This document shows positions 12,357 through 43,579 of a stretch of 46,688 nt of DNA, one piece after another; within the stretch, counting starts at the first letter, position 1, and each line of letters starts with the position of its first letter. The translations under genes were made by a program, and so were the position numbers. Origin of the DNA: Candidatus Thorarchaeota archaeon (GTDB lineage Archaea; Asgardarchaeota; Thorarchaeia; Thorarchaeales; Thorarchaeaceae); assembly GCA_048882045.1 (NCBI GenBank), contig JBHLRZ010000027.1:1-46688 (forward strand), read 5' to 3'. The notes under the pieces were generated by a model. It was not told the origin of the DNA. It searched no databases and worked only from the letters and a program-made list of their open reading frames with translations.

Positions 12357-12740
12357 CTAAGGATTGGCAGGTTCGTATCTGCTAGGACATGATGTTAAAA
12401 TCTGAGTTGCTCTGATGAGGCTGGCAGATTCTAGTGTTCCAATCGCTACTATATCTTGACCATCTATGAGATCAGGAACCTCTCCTTCTATTAGAACAAC
12501 AATCGTGTGATTATCACCAGCGAGTAATAATGTCGCATTTTCAAGAGTTATTGACAAAGAACCATTCACATACTCTCCTTTCAGTTGGATTGTGCGGCCC
12601 ATGTAGTTTTCTGGATTCTCAACCACATCATCCACACTTAGATAGGGGTCTACAAACAAATTAAGCATGCCCCACGCCACAAATCCGATTGTCGCACAGA
12701 GAATCACTGTAACCAGTGCCATTCTGGTCTTTTTCTTCAT
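12357..12740 (-). CDS. ccmE: Cytochrome c maturation heme chaperone CcmE, CxxxY variant
   Basis: An N-terminal TM is followed by an OB-fold-like region (YLSVDDV...IQLKG...IVAIG) and C-terminal CPSRY. It sits in a ccm operon. Confidence 0.9.
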   Translation of the reverse strand: MKKKTRMALVTVILCATIGFVAWGMLNLFVDPYLSVDDVVENPENYMGRTIQLKGEYVNGSLSITLENATLLLAGDNHTIVVLIEGEVPDLIDGQDIVAIGTLESASLIRATQILTSCPSRYEPANP

Positions 12741-12742
12741 GT

Positions 12743-12883
12743 CTATTGGTCTCCCTCGACTTGGGATTCGACTATCTTCAAATGCTTCTCAAGACCTATC
12801 ATTCTCAATAGGAGGTATAGGAGAAACGCGAACGTTCCGCCCCAGAAGAGAACGGCGACGATGAATAGTTCAAACTGTTGCAT
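12743..12883 (-). CDS. ccmD: Probable CcmD-like small membrane protein (46 aa, absent from the ORF track)
   Basis: My manual translation is MQQFELFIVAVLFWGGTFAFLLYLLLRMIGLEKHLKIVESQVEGDQ*, a single TM helix plus charged tail. It fills the ccmC-ccmE gap with 5-nt and 2-nt spacers, and GGAG lies upstream. Confidence 0.75.
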   Translation of the reverse strand: MQQFELFIVAVLFWGGTFAFLLYLLLRMIGLEKHLKIVESQVEGDQ

Positions 12884-12888
12884 TATTA

Positions 12889-13563
12889 CTAACTCCTTGA
12901 CATTCTAATCCTCATCAATTTCTCGTGTGCTGTATCTACTCGATAAGTGAGCTCAAGTAAAATCGAAGCCATTAGGGCGACTGCAATCATACTGACCATC
13001 AATGTGATTCCATGTTCCAACCCCATATGGATTCCCCTTTCTTCAATGATGAGAGGATGAAGAGTTTGCCAAATTCGAATTGATAGATAGCTGAGAATCA
13101 CCATTGGGAAGGCGACTATTCCAAAGATGGAACCATACTGAGCTCTTGACTCACGATCAGTCACTGATGCACGGTACACAAGAACACATGCGTATGCAAT
13201 CCAGAGAATTAATGTTGTAGTTTCTCTCGGGTCCCAGTTCCATGGACTATTCCAGGCTGCGCCAGCCCAAATCGAACCACTGATCAAAGTAATCGTTGTA
13301 TAGAAAAGACCTACCTTCACCGATGCGGCCCCAAGCACATCATACTTCATCTCTCCTTTCCAGAGATACAGACCACTACACACAAGGGTCACTCCAAAGG
13401 CTCCATATCCAACTAGGGCTGGGGCTATATGTTGGAAGAATATTCGAATAAGCTCTCCTTGTTCTTGTTCAGGTGGTGCATAAATCCAAGTCATATACAC
13501 ATAGAGTAAAGATAGAGCAGCTGTAAAACCGAAGAAGATCAGTCTTCTGTTACTCACAGTCAA
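12889..13563 (-). CDS. ccmC: Heme exporter / cytochrome c biogenesis protein CcmC
   Basis: It has the Trp-rich WWD loop GSIWAGAAWNSPWNWDPRET, flanking His residues (FQHIA, TLHP) and six TM helices. Confidence 0.93.
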   Translation of the reverse strand: MTVSNRRLIFFGFTAALSLLYVYMTWIYAPPEQEQGELIRIFFQHIAPALVGYGAFGVTLVCSGLYLWKGEMKYDVLGAASVKVGLFYTTITLISGSIWAGAAWNSPWNWDPRETTTLILWIAYACVLVYRASVTDRESRAQYGSIFGIVAFPMVILSYLSIRIWQTLHPLIIEERGIHMGLEHGITLMVSMIAVALMASILLELTYRVDTAHEKLMRIRMSRS

Positions 13564-13625: not shown

Positions 13626-14309
13626 TCAAGGTGAAAGTGCGAAGTGAAAGACTGAAGCTGAGAGTGTTAACATTGCTATCAGATGCGCCAAAAGAATTCC
13701 GAAAATTGACAGAACAGGAACCAAACCTGGCCCTAGAACTACAATTTTGGTTATCTCAATCAAGAGCATGAGACCTGAGGTAGCAGTCGGGAAATATACC
13801 AGTGGAAACACCGTGGCTTTCGATTCTGAAGGCATAGTTAAAGCTGAAGCCATTGAACCAACTGCCGCCAGGTCTAAGGTTCCCACTAGTAGAGTGGCAA
13901 TCATCAGTGGGAGATCGTTCAGGAACGAAAACCCAAACAGGACAGATATGATAGGTACTAAGAATATCTCAACAAGTCCCATCAGGACAAAGCCATAGAA
14001 AACCTTACCCAAATAAACGGACCATGCAGGAATTGGTGCAGTCGCAAGGCCTCGCAATGTTCCAGTTTCAGACTCGGAAATGAAGATTGGTGAGAATCCA
14101 AACATCCCTGTGAAAAAGATAATCACCCAGAGCATGGCACTCCCGACATCCTGCGGAACCGAGCCTCCAGTCACAAGAGCAAATGAGAATGCTAGGATTG
14201 CGATGAGTGCAAAGAGGAACATCGAGAATGCTTCAAACTTCTTTCGGAACTGAGTAAGGATGTCTTTCTTGGCAATAGCAAATGCTGCTCTTATTCCAGA
14301 AGTCATCAC
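13626..14309 (-). CDS. ccmB: Heme exporter permease CcmB
   Basis: It has AIAKKDI, ESETGTL.GL and VYLGK, about six TM helices, and lies between ccmA and ccmC. Confidence 0.88.
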   Translation of the reverse strand: MMTSGIRAAFAIAKKDILTQFRKKFEAFSMFLFALIAILAFSFALVTGGSVPQDVGSAMLWVIIFFTGMFGFSPIFISESETGTLRGLATAPIPAWSVYLGKVFYGFVLMGLVEIFLVPIISVLFGFSFLNDLPLMIATLLVGTLDLAAVGSMASALTMPSESKATVFPLVYFPTATSGLMLLIEITKIVVLGPGLVPVLSIFGILLAHLIAMLTLSASVFHFALSP

Positions 14310-14315
14310 TTCACC

Positions 14316-15071
14316 TCAGAGTGTCTGATCGAATTCAGAGATAGGACCTTGTGCGACAACGATACCTTTCCTGAGTGTCACAAATTCATCACACAGGTCT
14401 GCACCAAATGCTAGATTGTGTGTGGTCACGATTGTTGTCCTTTTGTTCCGATGCTCTTCTAGATACTCTCTAAAATCAATTGTAGTGTCCCTATCGAGAC
14501 CGCTGAAGGGTTCGTCCAGTAAAAGCAACTCTGGATTGTGAATTAGACTTCTTACAATGTCAAGTCTCTTCTTCAGACCAGTTGACAAATTCTTTACAGG
14601 TTCCTCAAGCCAAGACTTGATAGCAAAATGAGTTGCCAGATCCTCTACTTGGCGCTCGAAGAATCCAGTTTGAAGACCGTATAACTTGGAGTAGAACTGA
14701 AGATTTTCAATACCAGTGAGTTCCTCATATAACAATGGCTTATCTCCAACTAGTCCAAGATGTTTCTTGACTAGTTCAGGTTCTTCCTGGGGATCGTATC
14801 CCATAACCGAGATGGAACCTCCGTGAGGACGAAGTAGTGTTGAAATGACTCGCATGAGTGTTGTTTTTCCAGCTCCATTTGAACCAAATAATCCTTGAAT
14901 CCCACTCTGGGAAAATTCAATGGATACCTCTCTTAGAGCTACCCTGTAGCCATATCTTCGTGTGAGCTCATGTGTCACTACAGCTTTCGTCACTAACTGA
15001 TTCTCCTTTTGGTTCGAGCGAACCCTTTTGGGCTCCCTATTTAATGTGACGCATGAGTATTCAGTGTTCAA
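14316..15071 (-). CDS. ccmA: ABC ATPase CcmA
   Basis: It has Walker A GSNGAGKTT, signature LSTGLKKR, Walker B LLLDEP and H-loop TTH. The true start may be GTG 14990. Confidence 0.88.
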   Translation of the reverse strand: MNTEYSCVTLNREPKRVRSNQKENQLVTKAVVTHELTRRYGYRVALREVSIEFSQSGIQGLFGSNGAGKTTLMRVISTLLRPHGGSISVMGYDPQEEPELVKKHLGLVGDKPLLYEELTGIENLQFYSKLYGLQTGFFERQVEDLATHFAIKSWLEEPVKNLSTGLKKRLDIVRSLIHNPELLLLDEPFSGLDRDTTIDFREYLEEHRNKRTTIVTTHNLAFGADLCDEFVTLRKGIVVAQGPISEFDQTL

Positions 15072-16285
15072 CCAAGTTCCATTAAATCGATGAATAGGTC
15101 TTCAACGTTGAGAACCTTGATGTCTACATCTCTTTTCTTGACTGCGTCGAGGAAATTCAACTTGCAAAACACACAGGATGAAACTATTGTCGTTGCACCT
15201 GTTTCAAGTGCCTCATTCAATCTTCTCGCAGCAACGTTGATTGCGTTCTCACCGAAGCCTGCTTTGAAACCGCCTCCAGCTCCACAACATTTTGAATTTT
15301 GTCTATTCCTCTCCATCTCAACTAGTTTGATTCCTGGAATACTCTTGAGAACCTGCCTTGGCGCTTCGAATATGCCAACATGGCGTCCAAGATGACATGG
15401 ATCATGGTAGGTGACAGTTTCAGGGAAACTTTTCTTCCATTTGAGCTCACCTTTCTTCAATTTGAGAGCGAGGAACTGTGTCAGATGTTGTGTTGAAAAG
15501 GGAAGAATTCCATGTCTCTCTCTATAGAATCGTGGCCAATCCAAGGTCGTAGTTCTATAGCACCCTGAACACGAGAAGATGACATGCTTGATTCCTCGGG
15601 CCTGCATATGTTCTACATTATTGAGAATGAATTTTTCAGCTTCCAGAGTTCCAAGCAGCTCGTTCTCTCCATCCTCATTCTCTTCATAGATTGGTCTAGT
15701 GACCTGCCCAGTTCGTATCAATGGACTGCAACAACAGTATTCGTCAGCTCCAAGTATTTGGGGTTCGATATCGAAATAGTTTAGCATTCGTAGTGTCGCA
15801 TCAGCTATCTCTGGTCTTTTGTATGATGCAGTACATCCAACAAAATATCCCCATTCGGAATCATCTGAAATTCTTGTATCTGGTTTGACCCAATCTCCTC
15901 GTGCTTTGGTTTCTTCTCCAAATACATTGTTATGTTTGAATGCAAGATCTCCCATGACGTGGAGTTTTCCATATGGCCCCTTGCCCATTTGTACAAGCTT
16001 CTTTCTGACATCCTCAATAATTCTGACATATGGGACCTTGATAGGACACCTTTCAACGCATTGCTCACAAGTGCTGCATGCATAGACTGCTCTTACGAAT
16101 CCCTCATCCACTGGCAGGTTCTTCTCAACATAGGAACGCAGTAGTCTCAATCTACCGCCAGCAAACATTGCTTCTGATTTGAACTCTTCATAACTTGTAC
16201 ATGTCCATCTACAAGTTGAACAATTGCTGCAAAGAACGATCTGATCTGGGTCGACATCAAGTTCAGGTGTAAAGAATCTCCTCAT
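15068..16285 (-). CDS. Fe-S oxidoreductase with 2x[4Fe-4S] and two CCG domains (GlcF/HdrD-like)
   Basis: Motifs are CSNCSTCRWTC, CSTCEQCVERCP, YFVGC, YCCCSP, CSGC, YHDPCHLGR, CCGAGGG and CVFC. Confidence 0.9.
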   Translation of the reverse strand: MRRFFTPELDVDPDQIVLCSNCSTCRWTCTSYEEFKSEAMFAGGRLRLLRSYVEKNLPVDEGFVRAVYACSTCEQCVERCPIKVPYVRIIEDVRKKLVQMGKGPYGKLHVMGDLAFKHNNVFGEETKARGDWVKPDTRISDDSEWGYFVGCTASYKRPEIADATLRMLNYFDIEPQILGADEYCCCSPLIRTGQVTRPIYEENEDGENELLGTLEAEKFILNNVEHMQARGIKHVIFSCSGCYRTTTLDWPRFYRERHGILPFSTQHLTQFLALKLKKGELKWKKSFPETVTYHDPCHLGRHVGIFEAPRQVLKSIPGIKLVEMERNRQNSKCCGAGGGFKAGFGENAINVAARRLNEALETGATTIVSSCVFCKLNFLDAVKKRDVDIKVLNVEDLFIDLMELG

Positions 16286-17764
16286 CTAGACTGATCCCTC
16301 CTGGTATACCTTTGGTATTGGTAAGATATTCTCTGGACGTCGTAGTATTGATTGTATTCGACGAAAGTATCCATTCATTGTGAACATCAAGTTCATCCTC
16401 GTATACGACATATTGCAATGCGTTAATTTGTCTGGATTCATGAGACCCTTCGGGTCCCACTTCTTTCGAATTTCTTTGAATCGTTTGTAGTCATCAGGTT
16501 GGTATTTCTTGACATATACTGTATTCTGAAGACCCAAGGTGTACAATTTTCCTCCTTTCTTATACATCATCTTGACCAATCTATGCAGCATCGCTTTGCC
16601 TGACATGAAGTGCATCCAGTGTCTATGATCGGAGGGTGCAAAGACACATAGTCGTGCCATCGACTCTCCACCCAAAACAAGATAGAAGCAGGAATTAATT
16701 CGATAGTTTTTAGCTATCTTGTACATTCTCCTAACTATTGGTTCTATATTACCAATAGGTATCCAAAAGTTCTGCATCGAAAGTGTTGGCACCTCAAGCT
16801 TGAGTTTCATCTCAACGATGTCTCTATCTTCCCAGTTCTTCTGATAATATGATTGTTGCAGCTCCATACCGCCTGCGACTTCGAAAATCCCTCGGGCAGT
16901 CTTCAGTGACTCCTCAACTTCATCTATTGCTCCACTGTAAGTTACAACTACGAAGAACTTGCCTGTAGTCTTGGGAGGTAGTCCTCCTTGTATTCGCCAT
17001 TCGTATTCAAGATCTGTGAATCTCAGATAGATGGGTTGTGTCTTTGTCTTACTTAGTCTTGACACTGCATCTATTGCTTTATCGAGGTCCTGAAATGCAA
17101 ACATCAACCCCTGAGTTGTTTCTGGTGATGGAATCAATTTCAATTTGATTCTGGTGACAACACCGGCAATTCCTGAAGTACCAAAGAATTGAAACATATC
17201 GTCCCCCGTTACAGTTTCTATTGTACCATCTGGTCTGACGACTTCCATCTCCAGTGTGTTTTCAATCATAGAGCCATATTTCGAAGTGCCTATACCAGCC
17301 TTCCCACCAATTGCCAACCAACCAGCTAATGTCGATGCCACTCTACTCTGTGGTGCGACAGGAAGATTGAATCCTTGCTTTTCGAGTTGCTTATCTAGAA
17401 TCTCCCAGACAGCTCCAGCTTCTACATTAACCCATTGCTCCGTCTTATTGACCTCGATGATTCGATCCATTCGCTTTGTATCGATAACGATGCCACCTCT
17501 TGTGGGACTAGCAGAGCCATAGTAGCAGGTACCTCCACCTCTAGGGATCACGGGGATTTTGTGTTTTAGTGCGTATTTCAAAATTCTAGATACATCTTCA
17601 TTGCTTTGCGGCCATGCGACGTAGTCCGCTAGCCATTTCTTCTTCCATCTGTAATGATAGTATGGTATACCCGTTGTGTCCCCACTAGCTGATAGACGTT
17701 CAGCAACGAGATCACTAACCCAAGATACATTCGACAGATCTTCTATTTGGTCTGATGTACTCAT
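16286..17764 (-). CDS. FAD-binding oxidoreductase (VAO/GlcD-like), subtype B
   Basis: Motifs are IPRGGGT, V.AG..W, STLAGW, G..GVVT and DP.GLMNP.K. The real start is probably ATG 17764 (MSTSDQ), preceded by GAGGTGA. Confidence 0.87.
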   Translation of the reverse strand: MSTSDQIEDLSNVSWVSDLVAERLSASGDTTGIPYYHYRWKKKWLADYVAWPQSNEDVSRILKYALKHKIPVIPRGGGTCYYGSASPTRGGIVIDTKRMDRIIEVNKTEQWVNVEAGAVWEILDKQLEKQGFNLPVAPQSRVASTLAGWLAIGGKAGIGTSKYGSMIENTLEMEVVRPDGTIETVTGDDMFQFFGTSGIAGVVTRIKLKLIPSPETTQGLMFAFQDLDKAIDAVSRLSKTKTQPIYLRFTDLEYEWRIQGGLPPKTTGKFFVVVTYSGAIDEVEESLKTARGIFEVAGGMELQQSYYQKNWEDRDIVEMKLKLEVPTLSMQNFWIPIGNIEPIVRRMYKIAKNYRINSCFYLVLGGESMARLCVFAPSDHRHWMHFMSGKAMLHRLVKMMYKKGGKLYTLGLQNTVYVKKYQPDDYKRFKEIRKKWDPKGLMNPDKLTHCNMSYTRMNLMFTMNGYFRRIQSILRRPENILPIPKVYQEGSV

Positions 17765-17775: not shown

Positions 17776-18186
17776 CTACGCAATAAACTGAATATAACCC
17801 ATTACGAATACAATAGTCCAACATACTGCAGCTGTTAACCCGGGTATCTTGGTTCTTATCCCAGAGATGCCTGTCAGAAAAGCTCCTACTCCAGCCAAAT
17901 AACCAAAGATCCCAATCCCGATATGGATCAAATGAAAGAGATCTGCTCCACCAAAGGTAAGGACCGTCTGGGTGAGGGGTAAGATTGGGATGATATTGAT
18001 TGTTGTTAGTAACAGCGCAAGACCTGCGCAGATTCCATGTGCAAATGTATACTTCTCCTTCGAAATAAAGTATAATGCAGTTCCAAGCCACAGAAGAAGT
18101 AATGCTGGTAATCCTAGGAAGATGGTCATGTGCCAATTATCGAATTGCAGGGGTTGGAATTGAGAAATGAGTAATGGTGTTGTCAT
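17776..18186 (-). CDS. Four-TM His-containing membrane protein (cytochrome b-like)
   Basis: AAGGAGG precedes ATG 18186. It has four hydrophobic helices with His in WH, AHG and FHLIH, and is paralogous to the C-terminus of the 29642 gene. Confidence 0.65.
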   Translation of the reverse strand: MTTPLLISQFQPLQFDNWHMTIFLGLPALLLLWLGTALYFISKEKYTFAHGICAGLALLLTTINIIPILPLTQTVLTFGGADLFHLIHIGIGIFGYLAGVGAFLTGISGIRTKIPGLTAAVCWTIVFVMGYIQFIA

Positions 18187-18390: not shown

Positions 18391-20121
18391 TTAATGGAAT
18401 ATTCTTCTGAAGAATCTGAGAAATGGTGTTCCTATTGAAAGCACCACTGTAATTGGTATTAAGTTCGCAAATTCTGTCACTGCAAAACCTACGAAAATTC
18501 CCACAATAAACCAAAGTAAGAAACTCGGAAAATCATTGACAATTATCCAAGGTACGTATGCAAGGAATATACTTGGAACCAGCAACCTAGCTACCCAAAT
18601 TACGATTGGCGCAACAAGACCCGCAATCAACATAATCAGTATATTCATTCGTATGCTGAGAACCAGTGGTCCAGCAAAGATCTTGTGTGAGTTCAGATAC
18701 CCTTTTTTATCGGTCTTCTGCTTCAGTTGGGTAATCTTAGCGTAATTCTCTTTCCCATAGAAGCTCCTTGAATGTGCTGCATTCCACATGCCTATTGAAT
18801 AAGCACGACCGCCATGTTTCAGTCCGAGATTGATAACATCAAGTGAGCGATACCAACCCATCAGGAAAGAAATCTTCTTTCTTTCGTCATCTGGGAACCA
18901 TGTAAGAACTGCTACTTCTCCTCGGTCTGTTATTGCTCCTTCCAACGCAAAATCTTCCGATTTGAAGTGTTCGTTCATGTGGTCAATGTAACCATCTAGA
19001 TTGTCTAATGGGACATATACTTCTGAAGGAGCCAAACTAGGGCCGAGTCTTTTAATTCTCATTGGATAAAACCGTTCAGCCCACTCATGTTCTGCTACTT
19101 CTTCTGATTCCAGTGTTCCACTATAGCGGCTTACCACATGTTTGAGTTTCTCAATCTCAGCTGCTATCTCATCGTCAGTTCCCTCAAATGCGCAGAGAAT
19201 TATGAATTCTCCAGTTGTTAGTGGAGCTAGATCAACCTCTCTCAGCATCTTGTAGAACTTGTCAGTGATGAAGTGCAAATAGAATGGTCTTGTTGCTTCA
19301 AGAATATCTTGGAGGGCACCTACCATTAGATTCTGGCTACGAAATGATGATGTGGTTGGAACAATGTTTCGGAGTGGTATTATCTTGAGGACAACCTTTG
19401 TAATGATCCCAAGCGTACCATTGCTATCCACAAACATTTGGGTAGAATCATCAGAGTATACCAGGTTTTCACTGGCACCGTAGAAGAAGTTATCATCGCC
19501 TTTGAAAACATTCGACTCTTTCTTAATACTGAAGTACTCCTCAGATGTTTCACTTGTCCGAATTATCTCTCCATCAGGAAGAACAACTTCAAGATCGACT
19601 ACCTGTTCTGCAATACCGCCATACTTGGTGCTTCCTATCCCGCTTCCTCCAGCAGCAACCCAACCGCCAACAGTGCTTGAAGGTGCACTTGATGGATAGG
19701 CTGCGACAGTTACACCCTCATCTTCAAGTTCTTCAATTAGCTTGCCCCATATAATACCAGAGCCAACTTCTACTGTCATATTCTGCCTATCGATGTGATG
19801 GATCTCGTTCAGTCTGGTCATCTCAACAACAAGACCACCTCTAGTAGGCAGTGCGCCTCCATATCCACTCGTTCCATGACCACGAGGTACTACAGGTATT
19901 TGATTCTCCTTGCAGTACTTCAGAATATTGGAAACGACTTCAGTAGTTGTGGGCTGAGCGACAGCCTCAGCATTAGGATTCAAGACATCATTAACGATTC
20001 CAGGAAGTGCCGCTATGTCTGTTGAATAGAGACCGACCATGTACTCCTCTGATGAGAAGTAGTCTTCACCAACTATGTCTGCTAGATTCCGTAGATGTTT
20101 GTTTCTTATCATATCTCTCAC
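18391..20121 (-). CDS. FAD-binding oxidoreductase (VAO/GlcD-like), subtype A with C-terminal membrane anchor
   Basis: Motifs are VPRGHGTSGYGGA, YPSSAPSSTVGGW, GTLGIITKV and ERFYPMRIKRLGPSL. Two or three C-terminal TM helices follow. Confidence 0.87.
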   Translation of the reverse strand: MRDMIRNKHLRNLADIVGEDYFSSEEYMVGLYSTDIAALPGIVNDVLNPNAEAVAQPTTTEVVSNILKYCKENQIPVVPRGHGTSGYGGALPTRGGLVVEMTRLNEIHHIDRQNMTVEVGSGIIWGKLIEELEDEGVTVAAYPSSAPSSTVGGWVAAGGSGIGSTKYGGIAEQVVDLEVVLPDGEIIRTSETSEEYFSIKKESNVFKGDDNFFYGASENLVYSDDSTQMFVDSNGTLGIITKVVLKIIPLRNIVPTTSSFRSQNLMVGALQDILEATRPFYLHFITDKFYKMLREVDLAPLTTGEFIILCAFEGTDDEIAAEIEKLKHVVSRYSGTLESEEVAEHEWAERFYPMRIKRLGPSLAPSEVYVPLDNLDGYIDHMNEHFKSEDFALEGAITDRGEVAVLTWFPDDERKKISFLMGWYRSLDVINLGLKHGGRAYSIGMWNAAHSRSFYGKENYAKITQLKQKTDKKGYLNSHKIFAGPLVLSIRMNILIMLIAGLVAPIVIWVARLLVPSIFLAYVPWIIVNDFPSFLLWFIVGIFVGFAVTEFANLIPITVVLSIGTPFLRFFRRIFH

Positions 20122-20124: not shown

Positions 20125-21303
20125 CTAGAGACCTAGTGCCTCCACCACTATCTGGGACAGGTCCTTGAACTTGATGTTTGATTTCCTGTGCTCTATTCCA
20201 TCATTCAAAGACATTGTACAAGATGGACATTCACTCGCCATAATGGTCGCACCTGTTTTCTCTGCCTCCTCTATTCGTCTTGCTGATACTCTAACTGAAG
20301 CAACAGGATATGTCCCTTTGAGGAGTCCACCTCCGCCACAACAACGAGCCTTGTTTCGATTGTGTTTCATCTCCTTTAGTTTCAATCCTGGAATAGAGTT
20401 CAAGACCTCCCGAGCTGGATTGTAGATGTTTTGATGTCTACCAAGCTCACAGGGATCATGCCACACAACTTCCTCGTGGTAAGGCTTCTCAAACTTGATC
20501 TTTCCTTCTTGTAGCAATCTGAGAGTGAACTCTGAGAATGTTAGAAATTCAAACCCAGCTACAGCTTCCTTTCCAAGAAGGTGAGGATATTCCTCCGCAA
20601 ACGCTCTATGACATCCTGGGCAATTGAATACTATCGTCTTCACTCCCAGCTTTTCTAGAGCTCGTATATTGTGAATTGCCAACTCTCTGCCTTTCTCAAA
20701 GCCTCCAGCTACAAAGTATGGATTTCCACAACAAAACTCATCATCACCGAGGATGGTGAAATCGATACCCGCGGCATTCATCAATTTTACTGTGTTCTCG
20801 CCCATATGAGCGAGTGTTCCTTTGAATGAAATATTGCATCCTGCGAAATAGGCAACTTCTGCCTTTACTCCAATCCTGTCTTCGACAAGATCATCCACCA
20901 TATCAGTCCAAAGCGTTCTATCTGCTTGGTCCATCTCCATGATGTTTTGAGTTTGCTGAAGAGAATCGTCTATGTAATTCACGATTTCTGGCCATTCTTC
21001 GAGATTTCCTATCTCTTGCCTTGCGAGTTGCCAAAATCTAAGAAGAGGTATGTTTGTCTGACAGATCTCTTGGCATGCACCACATAAAGTGCAATAGAAG
21101 ATCCTCTGAGCAAAATCTGGGGGTATTGGCTTTTTCTCTTTGATGAGTCTTTTCAGTTGGTTTAGTTTTCCTCTAGGTGACTGAGAATCCCAAAGAGTAT
21201 CCAAGTATGCAGGACACACGAATGTGCAGAACCCACACTTTGCACAGACTGTCGGCTCTATATCAAGCCCTTCTAGTTTGAGGGGTTCATATGGTTTTGT
21301 CAT
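20125..21303 (-). CDS. Fe-S oxidoreductase with CCG domains (GlcF/HdrD-like)
   Basis: Motifs are CAKCGFCTFVCP, SPRGK, CTLCGACQEIC, FCCGNP, HDPCELGR, CCGGGG and CPSC. Confidence 0.9.
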   Translation of the reverse strand: MTKPYEPLKLEGLDIEPTVCAKCGFCTFVCPAYLDTLWDSQSPRGKLNQLKRLIKEKKPIPPDFAQRIFYCTLCGACQEICQTNIPLLRFWQLARQEIGNLEEWPEIVNYIDDSLQQTQNIMEMDQADRTLWTDMVDDLVEDRIGVKAEVAYFAGCNISFKGTLAHMGENTVKLMNAAGIDFTILGDDEFCCGNPYFVAGGFEKGRELAIHNIRALEKLGVKTIVFNCPGCHRAFAEEYPHLLGKEAVAGFEFLTFSEFTLRLLQEGKIKFEKPYHEEVVWHDPCELGRHQNIYNPAREVLNSIPGLKLKEMKHNRNKARCCGGGGLLKGTYPVASVRVSARRIEEAEKTGATIMASECPSCTMSLNDGIEHRKSNIKFKDLSQIVVEALGL

Positions 21304-21822: not shown

Positions 21823-21836
21823 AATTATCACCTACT

Positions 21837-29631: not shown

Positions 29632-29641
29632 ATTTGTCACC

Positions 29642-37089: not shown

Positions 37090-38289
37090 ATGAGAATGTC
37101 GCAGCACTATGATGTAGCAGTAGTTGGTTCAGGACCTGCAGGATCTACTACAGCTTGGATTGCTGCGAAGAATGGTCTAAAAACAGTCCTGATTGACCGA
37201 AGGAAGACTATTGGGATTCCAATCCAATGTGGTGAATTGATTCCTACATCAGGAGAAGTGAGGAATCTCTTCCCATCATCACGAACAATGCCAAAGGCTG
37301 TATCAGTACCAAAGAAATTCATTTGCAACAGAACCTCCACGATAAGATTGGTTTCGCCAAACGGTAAGACTTTCGAGTTTCCATTTGAAGCAAACATTGT
37401 TGATCGAGCTGGTTTTGACCAATATTTAGCCCAAAAAGCAAAAGATGCAGGTGTTGATATTCTTCTGAACACCAAGCTGCTGAAAAGAACCAGAGGTAAT
37501 AGCCTAGTACTAAAGACAGAAAGTCAGCAGAATGAAACTCAGGCAAATGTAGTAGTCGGTGCCGATGGCTCGCGTTCCAAGGTGGCAGAATCCTTGGGAA
37601 CTCAGTTCGTTCATGATGAATCTGACCTGAGCCCATCACTTCAATATGTAATGGAAAACTCCGATGTCGATCCTTCAGTTGTCGAGATGTATTTTGGCAG
37701 TGTAGCCCCTGGTGGGTATGCATGGATTATACCAAAGGGTGATGGTCGAGTAAATGTCGGATTTGGTATGCGGAGATTTATTGCCAAGGACGATAAACCT
37801 CTTCGCGAATACATCGACCGTTTTGTCTATCGAAATCCTATTGTTGCACCGCTTTTGGCTCGTGCTAGAATAGTCAGTAGAGTTGGTGCTATTATACCAG
37901 TAGGCGGCCCACTCAAGAGAACTTGGACCAGAAACACACTACTCGTGGGGGATGCTGCTGGGCATGTAATGGCTTCAAATGGCGGAGGTATACCTACTGC
38001 ACTTTGCGGCGGAATCATAGCAGGAGAAACAATCTCAGACCATTTTGAAAAAGAAACATCTCTCTCACATTATGAAGAAACTTGGCGAGTAGAGTTTGGT
38101 ACTGAACTTGAAACTGCACTGAGAGTCCTCAGAGTCGCTGACACTGTAATGCCTTCCGATTCGATAACCGATATCTGCATGAGACTCGCGGGAGTTCGTT
38201 TTTTGGAACCGTTGATAAGATGCAGACTTCCTCCGCTGGTTGATTTTGCTTCAAAGACGCTTGTGAGAATACTTAGTCAATTGCTCTAG
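37090..38289 (+). CDS. Geranylgeranyl reductase family flavoprotein
   Basis: Motifs are VVGSGPAGS, PIQCG, DRAGFDQ, GADG, APGGYAWIIPKG, VGDAAG and GGGI. TTTATAC lies about 40 nt upstream. Confidence 0.9.
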   Translation: MRMSQHYDVAVVGSGPAGSTTAWIAAKNGLKTVLIDRRKTIGIPIQCGELIPTSGEVRNLFPSSRTMPKAVSVPKKFICNRTSTIRLVSPNGKTFEFPFEANIVDRAGFDQYLAQKAKDAGVDILLNTKLLKRTRGNSLVLKTESQQNETQANVVVGADGSRSKVAESLGTQFVHDESDLSPSLQYVMENSDVDPSVVEMYFGSVAPGGYAWIIPKGDGRVNVGFGMRRFIAKDDKPLREYIDRFVYRNPIVAPLLARARIVSRVGAIIPVGGPLKRTWTRNTLLVGDAAGHVMASNGGGIPTALCGGIIAGETISDHFEKETSLSHYEETWRVEFGTELETALRVLRVADTVMPSDSITDICMRLAGVRFLEPLIRCRLPPLVDFASKTLVRILSQLL

Positions 38290-38291: not shown

Positions 38292-39332
38292 TCAATACAG
38301 CCTTTGAATTATGAAGTCGGCTAGATTATTCAGATTCTCTTCATTCTCAAATCCCTGGTTTCGAATCGCATCCTTCGCGGAATCAATGTACTGCTTTGTA
38401 ATCATTGTCCCATATTCCACAGCCTGGGTTTCATCAATCAACTGCAAAGCGAAGTAGAGTTCCCCGTTATCAAGGAGTTTGATACATCGGTTTCGCTTGT
38501 CTTCTGGACTTTCCTCAAGAGCGTGTGCTAGAAGAAAATTGCATCGACTTCCTTTGAGGTCGGATAGGACTGATTTTCCAGTTCCATTCTGGGTCGCAAT
38601 CACATCCAAGATATCATCTCTGATCTGGAATGCATAGCCAAGATTCTCTGCATATTCAATTATTGCTTCTATCTGTTGGAGATTCCCATTCCCTATCGTT
38701 GCACCAACTTTGGCTGCAGATGACATGAATGAAACAGTCTTCATTCTGACTACGTCGAGGTAGTGCTTCTTTGTGTAGACCTCTCGTCTGCCATTTGTAC
38801 TCATAAGCAAGTCAGCGGCCTCTCCCTCACACATTCTAATTGCACCACTAGCAACATATGTTAGAAGCTCGGGAGTTGATTGTTCTCCAATCATTTTGAT
38901 TGCTTTTGCAACTAGGAGGTCTCCAGCAATGATTGCCATTTTTCGTCCGAATTTTTCATGAGTTGTTTCAACACCTCGTCTCAATGCATCCTCATCTATA
39001 ATGTCATCATGGATGAGGCTAGCTGTTTGAATGAACTCGGTTGCCACAGCATAAGGGAGTGAGTCCTCGAGACTTCCGCCAACCGCTTCTGCACATAATA
39101 AGAGTAGCAACGAACGGATTCGTTTTCCTCCTGCAAGAATTAGGTGTCTTGTAGTTTCATAGAGAATTGGAGGTTCACCATCATCATCGATCAGCTGCTT
39201 TCTGATTGCCTCATTGATTAATTCAATTCTATATACAAACTGCTCTCTATCAAGAATATCTATGACTTCTGGAGAAACTTCAACATCGTCTAAGTCATTA
39301 TCGGCTTTGTCAACGAAAGGTTTCTCTGACAT
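38292..39332 (-). CDS. Trans-polyprenyl diphosphate synthase, probably medium/long chain
   Basis: Motifs are GGKRIR, FARM ASLIHDDIID, RRG, KT and SARM AFQIRDDILD. The residue at -5 of the FARM is a small Ala. Confidence 0.9.
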   Translation of the reverse strand: MSEKPFVDKADNDLDDVEVSPEVIDILDREQFVYRIELINEAIRKQLIDDDGEPPILYETTRHLILAGGKRIRSLLLLLCAEAVGGSLEDSLPYAVATEFIQTASLIHDDIIDEDALRRGVETTHEKFGRKMAIIAGDLLVAKAIKMIGEQSTPELLTYVASGAIRMCEGEAADLLMSTNGRREVYTKKHYLDVVRMKTVSFMSSAAKVGATIGNGNLQQIEAIIEYAENLGYAFQIRDDILDVIATQNGTGKSVLSDLKGSRCNFLLAHALEESPEDKRNRCIKLLDNGELYFALQLIDETQAVEYGTMITKQYIDSAKDAIRNQGFENEENLNNLADFIIQRLY

Positions 39333-39488
39333 CAGTTAATACTCCTGAGTAGTCTGTTTCAACCTGAAACCGCCTTAAAGTCCTTGCCTTTGTTTTCACA
39401 CATTGTCTAAGGATTGAAACGATGGGGAAGTCTTTTTTGTAAATAGAAAATCGAATAGTCACACGAGGTTGCATTGATGAGCAAGGGA

Positions 39489-40532
39489 ATGAACGAATCG
39501 GACATGCCAAAACCATCAAGAGTCCGAATTTGGTTTGCTGAGATGCGAGCACCATTTCTGACTGGAGCAATTGTCCCAGTCATTCTTGGAACATGTGTCG
39601 CATGGGCATCAACTGGGATCTTTCTCCTTGATGTATTCATACTCACCTTGCTTGGGGGGATGTTCGTTCACATTGGAGCAAATGTCGCGAATGATTACTT
39701 TGACCACAAAAGTGGTACTGATGACATGAATGTGGACTATGTCAGACCTTTCACTGGAGGGAGCAGAATGATCCAAAGAGGATGGATGTCACCTCGAGAA
39801 GTCTTTGCAGAAGCCATGGTGTTTTTCATCCTGGGAGGTGGTATCGGATTGTATTTGGCTTACACGCGGGGATGGGAAGTTCTCATAATAGGTGTCATCG
39901 GGGTCGGGTCTGCATTTTTCTATACCGCCCCTCCATTCAGATTCGTAAGTCGAGGCTATGGTGAAGTCTTTATTGGTCTCGATTTTGGGGTTTTGATGAC
40001 TCTTGGAGCTTATTTTGTCCAAACTCAAATTCTCGCATGGGAGGCTATATTCCCTTCATTGCCCATTGCCATCCTGATAACTGCGGTTCTTTACATCAAT
40101 GAATTCCCAGATCATGATGCAGACAAGGCTGCAGGTAAATTGACTGTTGTTGTTAGACTTGGTAGAGCTCGTGCTGCAAAAGGATATGCAGTTCTCATGA
40201 CCTCATTATACCTCTCAATAATAGTTCCAATCATATTGAATCTCACAAATTGGTACACAGTGCTAGCTGTTACAACAATCCCTCTAGCTGTTATTGCTAC
40301 TCGTTATGCATTGAAACACTATGACCAATCTTTCCCACTTATTCCTGCCTATGCATCAACTGTAGCAAATCATCTGTTTACAGGTCTGTTTCTTAGTTGG
40401 TCATACATTATGATTGGCTTGGGGAGAGAACCAATCTGTGTATTAGTATGGGGCCTGGTGTTTTTCACAATCTCCATTGGATTCTATATGTTTACTGAAC
40501 GAAAAGCCAAAGCCGCCGCCCCACCTTCGTAG
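39489..40532 (+). CDS. menA: 1,4-dihydroxy-2-naphthoate prenyltransferase (UbiA superfamily, MenA/UBIAD1 type)
   Basis: Motifs are RAPFL, ANDYFD..SGTD, GGSR, YTAPP, GYGE and NEFPD...D..AGKLT..VRLG. The start is uncertain (39474-39504). Confidence 0.87.
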   Translation: MNESDMPKPSRVRIWFAEMRAPFLTGAIVPVILGTCVAWASTGIFLLDVFILTLLGGMFVHIGANVANDYFDHKSGTDDMNVDYVRPFTGGSRMIQRGWMSPREVFAEAMVFFILGGGIGLYLAYTRGWEVLIIGVIGVGSAFFYTAPPFRFVSRGYGEVFIGLDFGVLMTLGAYFVQTQILAWEAIFPSLPIAILITAVLYINEFPDHDADKAAGKLTVVVRLGRARAAKGYAVLMTSLYLSIIVPIILNLTNWYTVLAVTTIPLAVIATRYALKHYDQSFPLIPAYASTVANHLFTGLFLSWSYIMIGLGREPICVLVWGLVFFTISIGFYMFTERKAKAAAPPS

Positions 40533-40536: not shown

Positions 40537-41016
40537 CTATTTGGAAGTCCACTTGTAGAAGTTAGCCCCCATCCAGTAGGAGATTTTCTTTGGATGGACT
40601 CGGATGACTATCCTAGAACCCATTGGATAGCCTGGCCCAAGAAAGTGTATGTATTTGTCCAAGAAATTTACCATCACCATGTCGTCTGCGACTTCCATCT
40701 CGACCAGCTTGGCTCTACCCTGAATCATGACTCCACAATTGCGTGCAGGAGACCTCGGGTCTCTTTTGTCAATCGTTACGCAGACTCGTGTGTTCCGACG
40801 AATGTTATTGACCTTACGACTTTTTTTGGTTGAAACCAATTGGATTGTTTGAGACGAGTCATCCCAAATATAGAACATGGCAGTCAGATGTGGGTCGCAT
40901 CCTTGTTCAGCTGTTCCTAGATATGCAAAGAAGCCATTATCCAGAATTGAGAGTGCTTGTTTAGGAATTTTCTTGGTTTTCTTTGTGAACGCTTTTTGGG
41001 GTTTGGATAGAAACAT
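40537..41016 (-). CDS. Pyridoxamine 5'-phosphate oxidase-like split-barrel flavin/F420-binding protein
   Basis: Motifs are AYLGT...PH, SRKVNNIRRN.RV.V.ID, GVMIQGRA and IRVHPKKISYW. Confidence 0.85.
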   Translation of the reverse strand: MFLSKPQKAFTKKTKKIPKQALSILDNGFFAYLGTAEQGCDPHLTAMFYIWDDSSQTIQLVSTKKSRKVNNIRRNTRVCVTIDKRDPRSPARNCGVMIQGRAKLVEMEVADDMVMVNFLDKYIHFLGPGYPMGSRIVIRVHPKKISYWMGANFYKWTSK

Positions 41017-41020
41017 CTTA

Positions 41021-42283
41021 TCACGCTCTCAATGTTCTTGGTTTGGCTTCCCGCCAGTAAGTAATCTTTTCCGGTTCAATTCTCACCATCACCCTTGAGA
41101 TGAAAGGTTTGTTTTGCCAAGCCAAAGGCAGTTCCTGGACCTTGGTATCATAGTACCTCATGTAACGGGGATATTTTCTGGCGAACAACGAACGCACTCT
41201 TAGCATCCAGAGACCATAGATGAACATCCTGAAGATGCCAAATAGAGTAACTTCTCCTAAAATCGTAGTTTTCCCTCTAATCATGACCGCTCGATTTCTC
41301 ATCACATTATTAGGATCTCTCATATCTACTAGAACAGCAACCTTTTGGTTCTCATTGAGAATCCGATACTTTGCTGATGCTAGAGATATTCCGATGTAAA
41401 TGAACTTCCCATCATAAACGAAAATCACTGGAGTCACATGGGTTTGCATATTGCTACATACACTCACATATGCAAATCTCTCATTATGTAAAATACTCTC
41501 GACATCCGGTGGAAACCATGGAACCATTTCCATCGCTAGAAAACTAAGGAAAGAAAGACCAAAGATGATACCTAGATATGCCAAAATCCCGATAAGTAAC
41601 AATGGGGAATGGGCAGCAATTGGAATCAACAGGGCAGCAGAAGCACCCCAATATAAGTTGACTGAGTCCAAAAATCTTAATGTTCGTACTTCTGAATATG
41701 CAGTGTACTCCAATCCTCTTCTCTTTCTAGCAGCGTAGCTCAAAGCAATTGATCTACGAGCTGCAAACAAGGTGGTCACAAATGAGAGACCCATTCTATA
41801 GCTAACATCCCATGCAAGGACCAGAAGAAGTATGAAGAGTAAGGGGTTTCCATATCCTGGACCCAAGAAGTGCTGGAGGAATGGTGGATCCCAAAATGTA
41901 TACCCCATGACACCAACAAAACATAGAACCCCAAAGACAAGTTCATTTTTCCGATTCCAAAGCAAGTCTGACTTGTATTCTCGCAACACCCTGAGTTCCT
42001 GCTCATTTGTTGGATTTCTCAATCGCCTCATCGCAGGAATAACATACAAACATCCCGCAGACCAAACCACTGTATATGCTATCGCAACAGAACCCAAGAT
42101 CGCTGTTTCAACAGGCATGCTGAAGTAGATAAACGCCAAGATACCTACAGCTTCAACCAATACTGCTTGAGCAATGACGTCCCAAACTGGTGGCAACCAT
42201 CTGAATGGAGGTATCCTATCTACAATCTCTTCATAAATCCATTTTCGGCTGCCGCGCTTTGAGGTTTCAGAAGCTAGCGTCAT
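41021..42283 (-). CDS. Multi-TM membrane protein fused to a C-terminal PNPOx-like split-barrel domain
   Basis: About six TM helices are followed by FAYVSV...HVTPV.FVYD...KYR.L.EN.KVAVLVD...VRIEPEKITYW. Confidence 0.75.
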   Translation of the reverse strand: MTLASETSKRGSRKWIYEEIVDRIPPFRWLPPVWDVIAQAVLVEAVGILAFIYFSMPVETAILGSVAIAYTVVWSAGCLYVIPAMRRLRNPTNEQELRVLREYKSDLLWNRKNELVFGVLCFVGVMGYTFWDPPFLQHFLGPGYGNPLLFILLLVLAWDVSYRMGLSFVTTLFAARRSIALSYAARKRRGLEYTAYSEVRTLRFLDSVNLYWGASAALLIPIAAHSPLLLIGILAYLGIIFGLSFLSFLAMEMVPWFPPDVESILHNERFAYVSVCSNMQTHVTPVIFVYDGKFIYIGISLASAKYRILNENQKVAVLVDMRDPNNVMRNRAVMIRGKTTILGEVTLFGIFRMFIYGLWMLRVRSLFARKYPRYMRYYDTKVQELPLAWQNKPFISRVMVRIEPEKITYWREAKPRTLRA

Positions 42284-42352
42284 TATTTTGTAGCTTTACA
42301 ACGTCGTATATTTACATATCGAAACCACTTGAGTATATGAGATGTTCTCTAA

Positions 42353-43579
42353 TCATCCATAGATCTCATCAAGCCCATCCCAAGTCAGACCCATTGCTTC
42401 TGCTACCAAGACTGCTAGGTCTTTCACTGTTTTACTGGATCCCGCATGAGGTAGTTGATCGTTCATAAAATCAACACAAGAGGGACAGGCTGTTGCAACC
42501 ACGTCCGCATTGGTAGCTTCGATGTCTTCGACCTTGAGCTTGTTTATCCTCAGAGCAAAATCAGCATCGACAGCTCTAAGGACACCGCCTGAACCGCAAC
42601 AGTAACAGTTCGCTTTGTTATGAGGAAGTTCTTCGAAAGTCACTCCTGGCAAGTGTTCCAAAACTTTCCGTGGTTCTTCATAGAAACCCGAGTTTCTTCC
42701 TGCATCGCATCCATCATGAAAGGTGACTGTCAAATCCAAAGGATTGTTCAGATCGGTCAACTTGCCTTGATCAAGTAGGTCTGCAAAGTATTGCGCTCCA
42801 TATAAGATCTCAAAGCCATGGTCGATACCCAGGAATTCATGATATTCATGGGACCACATCTTGTAGCAGCCTGGACAATTGGTGAATATCCTCTCAACAC
42901 CAAGTTTCTTGTAAGCTTCTATATTATGTTCTGCTAGTGCTCGAGCTCCTTCAAAGTCTCCAGTCATGATAAGAGGAGCGCCGCAGCAGTATTCATCCTC
43001 ACCGAGTACAGTGTATGATTCTCCAATCTTGTCCAATATCAGAGTAGTAGCGATGGTCGCTTGAATTGATACTCCTCTGAATGATGAAGCACATCCAAAG
43101 AAGAATGCCGTCTTGGAAGGTGTTCCCTGTTTGTCGATAAGTTCGTCCTCATTAGGTGTCCAATATGACCAACCCTCGATTCTATCCATCTGTGCCTGGC
43201 CTTGGATGTTGTAACTGTTCAACAAGGTTTCTTTTGCCATCTCTAGTTGCTCGGGCCACATACCACGTTTCTGGAAGTCTGATCGCAATACCTGGTAGAT
43301 TTTTATGAAGGGAATGTCCACCTGACAGATTTCCTCGCATCCTCCACACAATGTGCAACCAAAGATTGCATCACGGAGGCCCTCAAGACCTTCAGAAGGT
43401 CTCAATCTTCCCTGCATCAGGGCTCGGGTCAACATCATCTTTCCTTTACCTGAGTAGCTGTCTCTGCGCTTTACCTTGTAAGTTGGACAAGCTCCGTGTC
43501 CAACTTGACAGAAACTGCATTGCGCGCAAGTATAGGCGTATTCCTGTAAGCCGTGCTCATTCAGTGATGGGAAGTCCAT
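42353..43579 (-). CDS. Fe-S oxidoreductase with CCG domains (GlcF/HdrD-like), with no adjacent FAD-oxidase partner
   Basis: Motifs are CAQCSFCQVGHGACP, CTLCGGCEEIC, YCCGAP, CPGC, HDGCDAGR, CCGSGG and CPSC. The likely start is ATG 43579, with GGAG upstream. Confidence 0.9.
   Translation of the reverse strand: MDFPSLNEHGLQEYAYTCAQCSFCQVGHGACPTYKVKRRDSYSGKGKMMLTRALMQGRLRPSEGLEGLRDAIFGCTLCGGCEEICQVDIPFIKIYQVLRSDFQKRGMWPEQLEMAKETLLNSYNIQGQAQMDRIEGWSYWTPNEDELIDKQGTPSKTAFFFGCASSFRGVSIQATIATTLILDKIGESYTVLGEDEYCCGAPLIMTGDFEGARALAEHNIEAYKKLGVERIFTNCPGCYKMWSHEYHEFLGIDHGFEILYGAQYFADLLDQGKLTDLNNPLDLTVTFHDGCDAGRNSGFYEEPRKVLEHLPGVTFEELPHNKANCYCCGSGGVLRAVDADFALRINKLKVEDIEATNADVVATACPSCVDFMNDQLPHAGSSKTVKDLAVLVAEAMGLTWDGLDEIYG

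Follow-up and report, generated by a model that had tools for sequence, protein, structure and literature searches.

Transmembrane complexes built from an outer cytochrome c, a cytochrome b and a CCG protein are well known from sulfate reducers (TmcABCD, HmcA-F and DsrMKJOP), Methanosarcina (HdrDE) and Archaeoglobus (Hme). Asgard archaea, the closest known prokaryotic relatives of eukaryotes, are usually described as cytochrome-free fermenters, and models for the origin of eukaryotes rest on how these cells dispose of reducing power, usually assumed to occur by transfer of hydrogen or formate to partners. Two proteins of known structure are also relevant: EtfD, in which a wire leads from CCG clusters via two [4Fe-4S] clusters and heme b to menaquinone (PMC13083937), and OcwA, a cell-surface terminal reductase that reduces nitrite slowly and whose heme 5 corresponds to the catalytic heme of NrfA (PMC6703420). 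For the maturation of c-type cytochromes, archaeal CcmABCEF with a CcmE of the CxxxY form is sufficient in Methanosarcina acetivorans (PMC9084895). Here we analyse a stretch of DNA of 46,688 nucleotides (nt; the window), which is one whole contig (C27) of a 3.6-Mb Thorarchaeota metagenome-assembled genome (MAG; 93% complete, 2.8% contaminated) and carries a block of flavoenzyme, iron-sulfur, cytochrome and cytochrome c maturation (Ccm) genes that probably encodes heme-based transmembrane redox modules. The host genome is labelled G000, the other genomes of the genus G001 onwards (G005 is SMTZ1-45), and contigs of G000 C1, C29 and so on. A first-pass annotation made from the letters of the window had listed flavin adenine dinucleotide (FAD) oxidase and CCG genes, ccm genes, cytochromes and menaquinone genes in an apparent Asgard archaeon; every gene on that list was confirmed by Pfam, NCBIfam or motif scan, with corrections to FAD1, 'ccmD' and the surface protein at the end of the window, and the affiliation was borne out, with the flavoenzyme FAD2tm having more than 100 close homologs in Thorarchaeota, one of them on the 60,915-nt contig of SMTZ1-45. 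Our calls rest on these three methods together with hydropathy, synteny and an AlphaFold model; directly observed are gene content, motifs, topology (from hydropathy and the model), synteny, all-or-none inheritance and co-occurrence with Ccm genes.

Components of the putative modules

Each of four paralogous modules contains a cytoplasmic FAD_binding_4 flavoenzyme and an EtfD/HdrD-like protein with two ferredoxin-type clusters and two CCG domains. Three of the modules include a small protein or domain with four transmembrane (TM) segments and invariant His residues, and two include a beta-sandwich that faces outwards and bears a heme-c site of the form C(x2-4)CH. Beside them stand genes for an OcwA/NrfA-like surface multiheme cytochrome and an archaeal-type System I. 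All four pairs of FAD_binding_4/FAD-oxidase_C and Fer4_8/CCG proteins named in the first pass were recovered (paired by module in Table 1), as was a fifth CCG protein. The open reading frame (ORF) called for FAD1 was over-extended: relatives match only 79% of the long ORF, and the real start lies at about position 17764. Pfam finds both FAD_binding_4 and FAD-oxidase_C in all four flavoenzymes, the C-terminal domain weakly (E 1e-7 to 1e-11). The proteins form two subfamilies, one with FAD1 and FAD4 (34% identical) and one with FAD2tm, FAD3tm and FAD5, a core gene (29-35%); at least six further FAD/CCG pairs lie on other G000 contigs, so the family is much expanded.

Public annotation names the flavoenzymes 'FAD-binding oxidoreductase', and the first pass had read the pairs as GlcD/GlcF-type. 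This reading failed. A motif scan found the metal motifs HxGDGNxH and GEHGxG (His-His-Glu) in none of FAD1-4, and in an alignment to mouse LDHD the stretch GHVGDGNF is replaced by GAITDRGE and GEHGIG by RAYSIG or PYTIGL. Against the NCBIfam GlcD model (TIGR00387), FAD1-4 score 116-158 bits, very far below the cut-off of 567.9. With the metal motifs replaced and the curated cut-off missed, an identity as GlcD or D-lactate dehydrogenase was rejected, and because the metal triad is absent a substrate is not assignable. The best PDB match of FAD4 is alkyl-dihydroxyacetone-phosphate (alkyl-DHAP) synthase (E 4e-24); this identity was rejected as well, since the match covers only residues 29-281, the N-terminal FAD half, and the HHH loop is present in no paralog.

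The partner proteins CCG1-5 all contain Fer4_8 and CCG in two stretches according to Pfam. A regular-expression search found two CX2CX2CX3C motifs and two 'CCG' strings in CCG2-4, one 'CCG' string in CCG1 and one CX2CX2CX3C motif in CCG5. By sequence they resemble EtfD/HdrD-like iron-sulfur proteins: the best solved relative of CCG2 is the soluble region of EtfD (PDB 9ojn, E 1e-34), and HdrB is also among the PDB matches. Hydropathy shows no TM segments in CCG1-5, and the 5-TM heme-b domain that is fused to EtfD is thus missing.

Candidates for the membrane part are encoded next to the flavoenzymes. The separate 136-residue 4-TM protein of module 1 has invariant His19, His50, His85 and His88 and is homologous (36% identity, E 5e-18) to the C-terminal TM domain of the protein of module 4 that joins a heme-c site to a His-rich membrane domain (the c/b fusion); no Pfam model matches this 4-TM family. 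The DUF2231-like 4-TM protein of module 2, with invariant His7, His12, His14 and His51, is unrelated to that family by profile comparison (probability 0.8%), and a literature search on DUF2231 yielded nothing useful. Signal peptides and motifs confirm the two exported CX4CH proteins of the first-pass list, which are the monoheme-c candidate of module 2 and the c/b fusion. In the former, C36, C41 and H42 are invariant, and the protein is homologous to the N-terminal domain of the latter. Thor-type orthologs of the c/b fusion keep C50, C55, H56, H287, H318, H363, H366 and H384 invariant. An exhaustive HMMER search also returned shorter relatives of 280-310 residues with the same two ends; in a comparison of 13 sequences C55, H56 and H287 never vary and H318 and H366 hardly ever do, and the heme-c column in relatives reads CXXCH, CX4CH or only xxxCH, with the upstream Cys at -3, at -5 or missing. 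The AlphaFold model of the c/b fusion (mean pLDDT 79) has four C-terminal helices and places H287 and H363/H366 at the outer face and H318 and (in Thor-type sequences only) H384 at the inner face, a layout that would suit one b heme near the outer face and perhaps another near the inner face. A Foldseek search with this model returned only Ig/FN3 proteins and gave no information on the TM domain, and a complex prediction for FAD4, CCG4 and the 4-TM domain scored 0.00, which weighs neither for nor against binding. Given their exported Cys...Cys-His site and the maturation genes, the CX4CH proteins are candidate c-type cytochromes. In the cultured Asgard archaeon Lokiarchaeum ossiferum (locus L042:14847-17470) the c/b relative has 'AH' in place of 'CH' and the genome has no Cytochrom_C_asm match, as one would predict were the Cys a point of covalent heme attachment. 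The same c/b relative is followed by a FAD protein of 600 residues, into which apparently just the ferredoxin-like beginning of the CCG protein has been incorporated.

Of the ccmABCDE and ccmF genes claimed earlier, CcmA, CcmB, CcmC, CcmE and CcmF stand, whereas 'ccmD' is an ORF of 46 codons without a significant Pfam CcmD match; there is no match at all in the window, and the counterpart on metagenome contig L038 (17587-17727) stays sub-threshold at E 0.029. With its one TM segment, this ORF occupies the slot between ccmC and ccmE that belongs to ccmD in bacteria; archaea are stated to lack CcmD (PMC9084895). As judged from sequence, the Ccm set of the block is an archaeal-type System I with a CPSRY motif in CcmE. 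If CcmA begins with TTG at 15071, the first ccm gene overlaps the last CCG gene by 4 nt, the gene for CCG1 ending at 15068.

The multiheme cytochrome has six CXXCH and two CX4CH motifs and is anchored by a C-terminal TM segment in archaeal style. Its orthologs vary at site 1 between CX4CH (as here) and CXXCH and at site 9 between CX4CH and CX5CH, whereas all have CMHCM at site 5. The best solved match is OcwA of Thermincola potens (PDB 6I5B, E 1e-7), with NrfA proteins next. The invariant CMHCM (residues 214-218) aligns with CLKCH of OcwA, and from motif order we infer that its position is that of OcwA heme 5; a CXXCM site at this position is unusual. Pfam Cytochrom_C552 and the NrfA entries of the PDB match over residues 273-427, corresponding to Pfam model positions 227-379 of 438. 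NCBI annotation names the orthologs NrfA; tests for NrfA found no CXXCK, no NCBIfam NrfA match and no full-length model match. Since the protein is the only multiheme ORF in G000, the Ccm genes would serve essentially the block. G000 ORFs with two or three CXXCH motifs (on C10, C46 and C49) were not counted as cytochromes, and those inspected, on C10 and C49, look like chance or low-complexity matches.

Inheritance of the block and its recurrence in other lineages

The island had originally been placed at 12357-43579. A conserved unit is present, but its true extent is 11.7-37.0 kb, from the FMN reductase to CcmF. In G002, G005 and G006 the order of genes is collinear with the window from MutS to CCG5 at 50-90% amino-acid identity, so the arrangement is not due to chance. 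In G001 (97% complete), G013 and G014, MutS lies directly beside GGR-IDS-MenA-CCG5 (GGR, geranylgeranyl reductase; IDS, polyprenyl diphosphate synthase) and all 22 genes in between are missing, which defines 11728-36986 as the unit gained or lost. A synteny check, which the first pass had proposed, therefore finds relatives with the whole block or without it, and no scattering of its genes. From species to species, the proteins of the block have diverged to roughly the same degree as those of the flanking core genes, and for that reason the history of the block, as read from sequence, fits descent with repeated loss; a recent horizontal acquisition is not indicated. Contamination or mis-binning was rejected, given that many species have the block flanked by identical core genes, with contigs of up to 204 kb, and GC is even across the window (0.42-0.455).

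Within the block, 18 genes on the minus strand run from 30895 down to 12357, most of them separated by at most 62 nt or overlapping, with three gaps of 91, 204 and 225 nt. In this direction the order is module 4 (c/b fusion, FAD4, CCG4), a flavoprotein resembling HpnE and amine oxidases, module 3 (CCG3, FAD3tm), module 2 (CX4CH protein, DUF2231-like protein, CCG2, FAD2tm), module 1 (136-residue 4-TM protein, FAD1, CCG1) and finally CcmA, CcmB, CcmC, the 46-codon ORF and CcmE. An AT-rich spacer of 257 nt parts this run from a plus-strand unit of multiheme cytochrome, (alpha/alpha)6-barrel protein and CcmF.

Outside the genus, more distant relatives (25-31% identity) have the c/b gene immediately followed by a FAD_binding_4 gene and then, where the contig continues, by a Fer4_8/CCG gene. 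Ccm genes lie beside this unit in four of five informative contexts: a CcmF-like gene on metagenome contig L030, CcmE on metagenome contig L035, a CcmF-like gene together with a giant Ig protein in a Hodarchaeota MAG (L039), and on metagenome contig L038 a full set of CcmF, CcmA, CcmB, CcmE, the 46-codon ORF and CcmC plus another FAD/CCG pair. In the fifth, a Promethearchaeota MAG (L037), the three module genes are present with no Ccm gene within 10 kb. Across 400 genomes of the phylum the c/b family was found in 88 and Cytochrom_C_asm in 102. Within the genus, c/b matches and Cytochrom_C_asm occur in an identical set of 20 genomes and are both absent from the remaining eight; in one Loki-type family the c/b family was found in all but one of the 30 Ccm-positive genomes (29), and two other families have Ccm without it. 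As related genomes are not independent, these counts are descriptive and not statistics.

The genes on the far side of CcmF behave differently from the block. They belong to the core, the PNPOx-like genes included; species without the Ccm/cytochrome block keep MenA, IDS, GGR and CCG5, and MenA is found in 23 of the 27 other genomes of the genus, block-less species included. On MenA only TIGR00751 was passed, the other MenA models staying below their cut-offs. Beyond the core genes, contig C29 carries FAD5 (the partner of CCG5), a membrane protein of 205 residues and an 11-gene Nuo-like operon (27185-41627); no NuoEFG-type input module was seen in the stretch of C29 that was read. The arrangement of FAD5, 205-residue protein and Nuo-like genes is conserved in 8/8 relatives examined, with or without the block. 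Menaquinone had been made part of the chain in the first pass. MenA, IDS and GGR are certainly present, but because they and CCG5 are core genes by the Nuo-like operon and outside the variable block, menaquinone is a neighbour rather than a demonstrated part, and copies of the module elsewhere have no MenA next to them.

Table 1 Features of the window, in order of position (strand + or -), with the basis of each call.
Feature	Position	Strand	Basis and remarks
FMN_red / iron-sulfur-flavoprotein-like flavoprotein	11728..12354	+	Pfam FMN_red 7.5e-32; first gene of variable block; absent with block in G001, G013, G014
CcmE heme chaperone, archaeal CxxxY form (C118-PSR-Y122)	12357..12740	-	Pfam CcmE 7e-12; C118 invariant in orthologs
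46-aa (amino-acid) single-TM ORF at ccmD position	12743..12883	-	71-80% identical, same place, in G002, G005, G006
CcmC	12889..13563	-	Pfam Cytochrom_C_asm 4e-28
CcmB	13626..14309	-	Pfam CcmB 4e-21
CcmA ABC ATPase	14316..15071	-	Pfam ABC_tran 3e-26; TTG start
CCG1, module 1	15068..16285	-	Pfam CCG 1.7e-26 and Fer4_8; Cys motifs
FAD1 flavoenzyme, module 1, corrected start	16286..17764	-	Pfam FAD_binding_4 1.6e-35; Met125 start
136-aa 4-TM protein, module 1	17776..18186	-	Homologous to C-terminal domain of 29642-30895; no Pfam family
FAD2tm flavoenzyme, C-terminal 4-TM tail, module 2	18391..20121	-	Pfam; hydropathy; >100 Thorarchaeota orthologs
CCG2 iron-sulfur protein, module 2	20125..21303	-	Pfam CCG 2.4e-33; best solved relative EtfD 9ojn
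4-TM DUF2231-like protein, module 2	21319..21831	-	Pfam DUF2231 21.8 bits, below 26.4 cut-off; invariant His
Exported monoheme-c candidate, module 2	21837..22433	-	Signal peptide, CGTTGCH, beta-sandwich, C-terminal TM anchor
FAD3tm flavoenzyme, C-terminal TM tail, module 3	22659..24374	-	Pfam; hydropathy
CCG3 iron-sulfur protein, module 3	24371..25564	-	Pfam CCG 7e-29
Amine-oxidase / HpnE / phytoene-desaturase-like flavoprotein	25656..26984	-	Pfam Amino_oxidase 3e-38
CCG4 iron-sulfur protein, module 4	27019..28143	-	Pfam CCG 2.9e-35
FAD4 flavoenzyme, module 4	28153..29640	-	Pfam; aligned with Loki-type and Hodarchaeota orthologs
c/b fusion protein, module 4	29642..30895	-	Signal anchor, CGNSGCH, two Ig-like domains, 4-TM His domain; AlphaFold
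Surface-anchored multiheme cytochrome c, OcwA/NrfA superfamily	31153..32568	+	Nine motif positions
Exported, C-terminally anchored (alpha/alpha)6-barrel plus Ig-like protein	32727..34901	+	ESM Atlas structure matches
CcmF heme lyase, last gene of variable block	34920..36986	+	Pfam and NCBIfam; same genus genomes as c/b family
Geranylgeranyl reductase (GGR) family protein, core flank	37090..38289	+	TIGR02032 246 bits, above cut-off; beside MutS in G014
Polyprenyl diphosphate synthase (IDS), core flank	38292..39332	-	Pfam 8.8e-61; present in G001, G013, G014
MenA-type 1,4-dihydroxy-2-naphthoate (DHNA) prenyltransferase, core flank	39474..40532	+	TIGR00751 126.1 bits vs cut-off 102.15
PNPOx-like flavoprotein and DUF7530 membrane domain fused to PNPOx, core flank	40537..42283	-	Pfam
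CCG5 iron-sulfur protein, core flank	42353..43627	-	Pfam; FAD partner on adjoining contig C29
C-terminal 1,009 aa of ~1,414-aa surface protein	43659..46688	-	Pfam PKD/Ig; N-terminus on C29

Several further genes deserve mention. No other protein of the block is as conserved as the HpnE/amine-oxidase-like flavoprotein, with 89-91% identity from species to species; all its NCBIfam scores are below cut-off, and its role is not assignable. Between the multiheme cytochrome and CcmF sits the (alpha/alpha)6-barrel protein, syntenic in G002, G005 and G006, whose fold is likened to AGE/cellobiose-2-epimerase (TM-score 0.75-0.83 by target in the ESM Atlas). The surface protein at the end of the window is split over two contigs, the ends of which overlap by 77 nt; its head, with signal peptide, CGTVGCH and a beta-sandwich, lies at C29:41814-43105. 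With its heme-c-type domain, many PKD/Ig repeats and C-terminal anchor it occurs in only some species (G002, G012, G020), and the counterparts in G012 and G020 are open frames of 1,418-1,426 residues. Upstream of the block, bacterial-type MutL and MutS (2825-4621 and 8854-11454, minus strand) flank the pentose-phosphate genes for transaldolase and ribulose-phosphate epimerase, a set that is conserved in the genus.

Possible routes of electron flow

In the reading that we favour, electrons would pass from a cytoplasmic substrate to FAD, via the Fe-S/CCG clusters to membrane heme b and on to outer heme c, and from there through the surface multiheme cytochrome to an external acceptor, which could be a mineral, a humic substance, a partner cell or a soluble oxyanion. 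Which cofactors are loaded, which subunits touch, which way the electrons move and what serves as substrate and acceptor are all deduced in this scheme. The first-pass annotation had drawn a comparable chain, and its passage from flavoenzyme through Fe-S/CCG protein and membrane to outer heme c agrees with the order of domains and with the recurrence of the unit beside Ccm genes; its menaquinone link was not borne out, although the menaquinone genes and the Nuo-like complex may share the membrane with the block. Whether the chain performs true extracellular electron transfer is another matter, and here our suggestion is plausible but tentative, and rather less likely than not to be right. Also speculative, and somewhat unlikely to hold in full, is the proposition that Thor-, Loki-type and Hodarchaeota lineages share an undescribed transmembrane wire of flavoenzyme, EtfD-like Fe-S protein, a new 4-TM heme-b family and an outer variant heme c, which would pass electrons from heme-auxotrophic, supposedly fermentative cells directly to minerals or partners, with four modules and an OcwA-like cytochrome in Thorarchaeota.

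Several points weigh against this scheme. Judged by sequence, the flavoenzymes have no assignable substrate. EtfD delivers electrons to menaquinone and not across the membrane, so a quinone end-point is possible for the modules. The multiheme protein could equally reduce a soluble compound at the outer face, and gene data do not fix the direction of flow. His384, at the cytoplasmic face of the c/b fusion, is conserved only in Thor-type sequences, which makes the second b heme uncertain. Finally, ALAD was found in 0/28 genomes of the genus and porphobilinogen (PBG) deaminase was not found in G000, so that any heme would have to be imported.

The alternative that survives best takes the modules to be substrate:menaquinone oxidoreductases like EtfD, GlpABC and HdrDE, with the heme-c and multiheme parts as a separate menaquinol-oxidising branch or as accessories. 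Among solved structures, EtfD comes nearest to the CCG proteins (PMC13083937), the block lies exactly between MutS and the MenA cluster, and the genome has MenA with an adjacent Nuo-like operon, two prenyl synthases and MenG/UbiE, with both MenA and MenG/UbiE scoring above cut-off. However, MenA is kept in species without the block, modules of Loki-type and Hodarchaeota genomes occur with Ccm and without MenA within 10 kb, heme-c and TM domains are joined in one protein in which the heme-c Cys follows the presence of Ccm, and a pathway for the head group was not found; overall we regard a purely quinone-linked function as unlikely. The searches behind the last point found MqnA/D (PF02621) in 0/28 genus genomes, and for MenB, MenD and MqnC only sub-cut-off paralogs in G000, with no genuine MenB or MenD. 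Controls for these cofactor-pathway searches were positive in archaea; MAGs are incomplete, and an absence over 28 genomes is deemed likely real. UbiE/MenG (locus L040, C1:242877-248813) lies beside an MFS (BT1-like) transporter, which one may speculate to be a precursor importer, and a second polyprenyl synthase; the locus further contains another UbiA-family gene and one for a B12-radical SAM protein. Both heme and the naphthoquinone head group are, from this gene content, probably taken up from outside.

A different end-point is assumed if the block supports anaerobic respiration to a soluble acceptor, with the multiheme protein acting as an outer-face reductase of nitrite, hydroxylamine, sulfite or similar compounds and not as a wire to solids. 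The Cytochrom_C552 and NrfA matches over residues 273-427, the NCBI name, the alignment of CMHCM with CLKCH of OcwA (by motif order heme 5, the counterpart of the catalytic heme in NrfA) and the slow reduction of nitrite by OcwA itself (PMC6703420) could all be taken in this sense. We nevertheless consider it rather improbable, with CXXCK and an NCBIfam NrfA match lacking, only the C-terminal part of the Pfam model covered, and the c/b-FAD-CCG unit occurring in lineages that have no such multiheme gene nearby.

Electrons might also flow inwards, as in Tmc and Hmc, from an external donor or partner to the c hemes and heme b, with CCG and FAD proteins then reducing a disulfide or an organic acceptor. 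An outer cytochrome c with a membrane cytochrome b and a cytoplasmic CCG protein is the architecture of Tmc/Hmc/DsrMKJOP (no search matched those complexes), and CCG domains reduce disulfides in HdrB/HdrD, with HdrB appearing among the PDB matches. On the other side, no candidate for a disulfide carrier turned up, flavoenzymes of this family generally act as oxidising enzymes and nothing in the data fixes direction, and inward flow seems to us quite improbable. Least convincing, and very improbable indeed, is a role of the flavoenzymes as alkyl-DHAP-synthase- or desaturase-like lipid or isoprenoid enzymes in membrane biosynthesis: two of them are membrane-anchored, FAD4 has alkyl-DHAP synthase as best PDB match, an HpnE/phytoene-desaturase-like gene lies inside the block, GGR and IDS are near, and mevalonate genes are near on one Loki-type contig, but the match is to the FAD half without the HHH loop, alkyl-DHAP synthase needs no Fe-S, heme b or heme c partner, and the tight linkage and Ccm co-occurrence are left unexplained.

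If outward flow through heme-based modules is correct, it would add direct electron transfer or anaerobic respiration to models for the origin of eukaryotes. Screens for CXXCH and automatic names such as 'glycolate oxidase' and 'NrfA' hide such a system, and the cells seem to depend on neighbours for precursors of heme and quinone.

Comparison with known systems

A search of the full-text literature (Thorarchaeota/Asgard cytochrome c, multiheme, menaquinone, extracellular electron transfer) found no published description of this system. Analogous architectures are known from Tmc, Hmc, DsrMKJOP, HdrDE and EtfD, while the parts used here are undescribed. Glycolate oxidase GlcDEF and the D-lactate/D-2-hydroxyglutarate dehydrogenases (YdiJ, Dld-II) likewise place FAD_binding_4 and FAD-oxidase_C beside a Fer4/CCG protein; these enzymes have a His-His-Glu metal site, which is replaced in the flavoenzymes of the block. 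EtfD, the electron-transfer flavoprotein (ETF):menaquinone oxidoreductase of Mycobacterium smegmatis (9ojn), shares with the CCG proteins two ferredoxin-type [4Fe-4S] sites and two CCG domains, and it takes electrons from a flavoprotein and hands them to a membrane heme b, much as we propose for the modules. However, EtfD includes a 5-TM heme-b domain in its single polypeptide and has menaquinone as its end-point, whereas the Fe-S protein of the block is soluble and the putative membrane part is a separate, unrelated 4-TM family without a Pfam model, some copies of which are fused to an outer heme-c domain. The flavoprotein partners differ too, being ETF in one case and of the FAD_binding_4 type in the other.

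In the complexes of the Tmc/Hmc/DsrMKJOP/HdrDE/Hme group, cytochromes c (outer) and b (membrane) are brought together with a cytoplasmic HdrD-like CCG protein, as they would be in the modules. These complexes have a NarI-type 5-TM cytochrome b and c3-type multiheme or triheme cytochromes and lack a flavoenzyme subunit; the modules differ in that the His-bearing membrane domain has four TM segments, the beta-sandwich carries only one heme-c site, of variant form, and a FAD_binding_4 enzyme takes part. Pfam scans found no NarI or c3-type family in the membrane and monoheme-c proteins, and for the membrane and c-type parts no sequence relation to these complexes was detected.

The multiheme cytochrome is most similar to the nonaheme OcwA of T. 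potens, with nine motif positions in the same order and a C-terminal helical region, and OcwA, like the putative surface cytochrome here, is located at the cell surface of an organism without an outer membrane. It differs from OcwA/NrfA in its low identity, in CMHCM at site 5 and CX4CH/CX5CH at sites 1 and 9, in the lack of CXXCK and in its archaeal-style TM anchor. Finally, the streamlined System I of M. acetivorans shares CcmA, CcmB, CcmC, CcmE (CxxxY) and CcmF with the block. Unlike that set, the block has CcmF as a single gene of 688 codons, 22 kb from ccmABCE, and a conserved 46-codon TM ORF at the ccmD position, and the predicted substrates of its Ccm proteins carry CX4CH or, in relatives, single-Cys sites.

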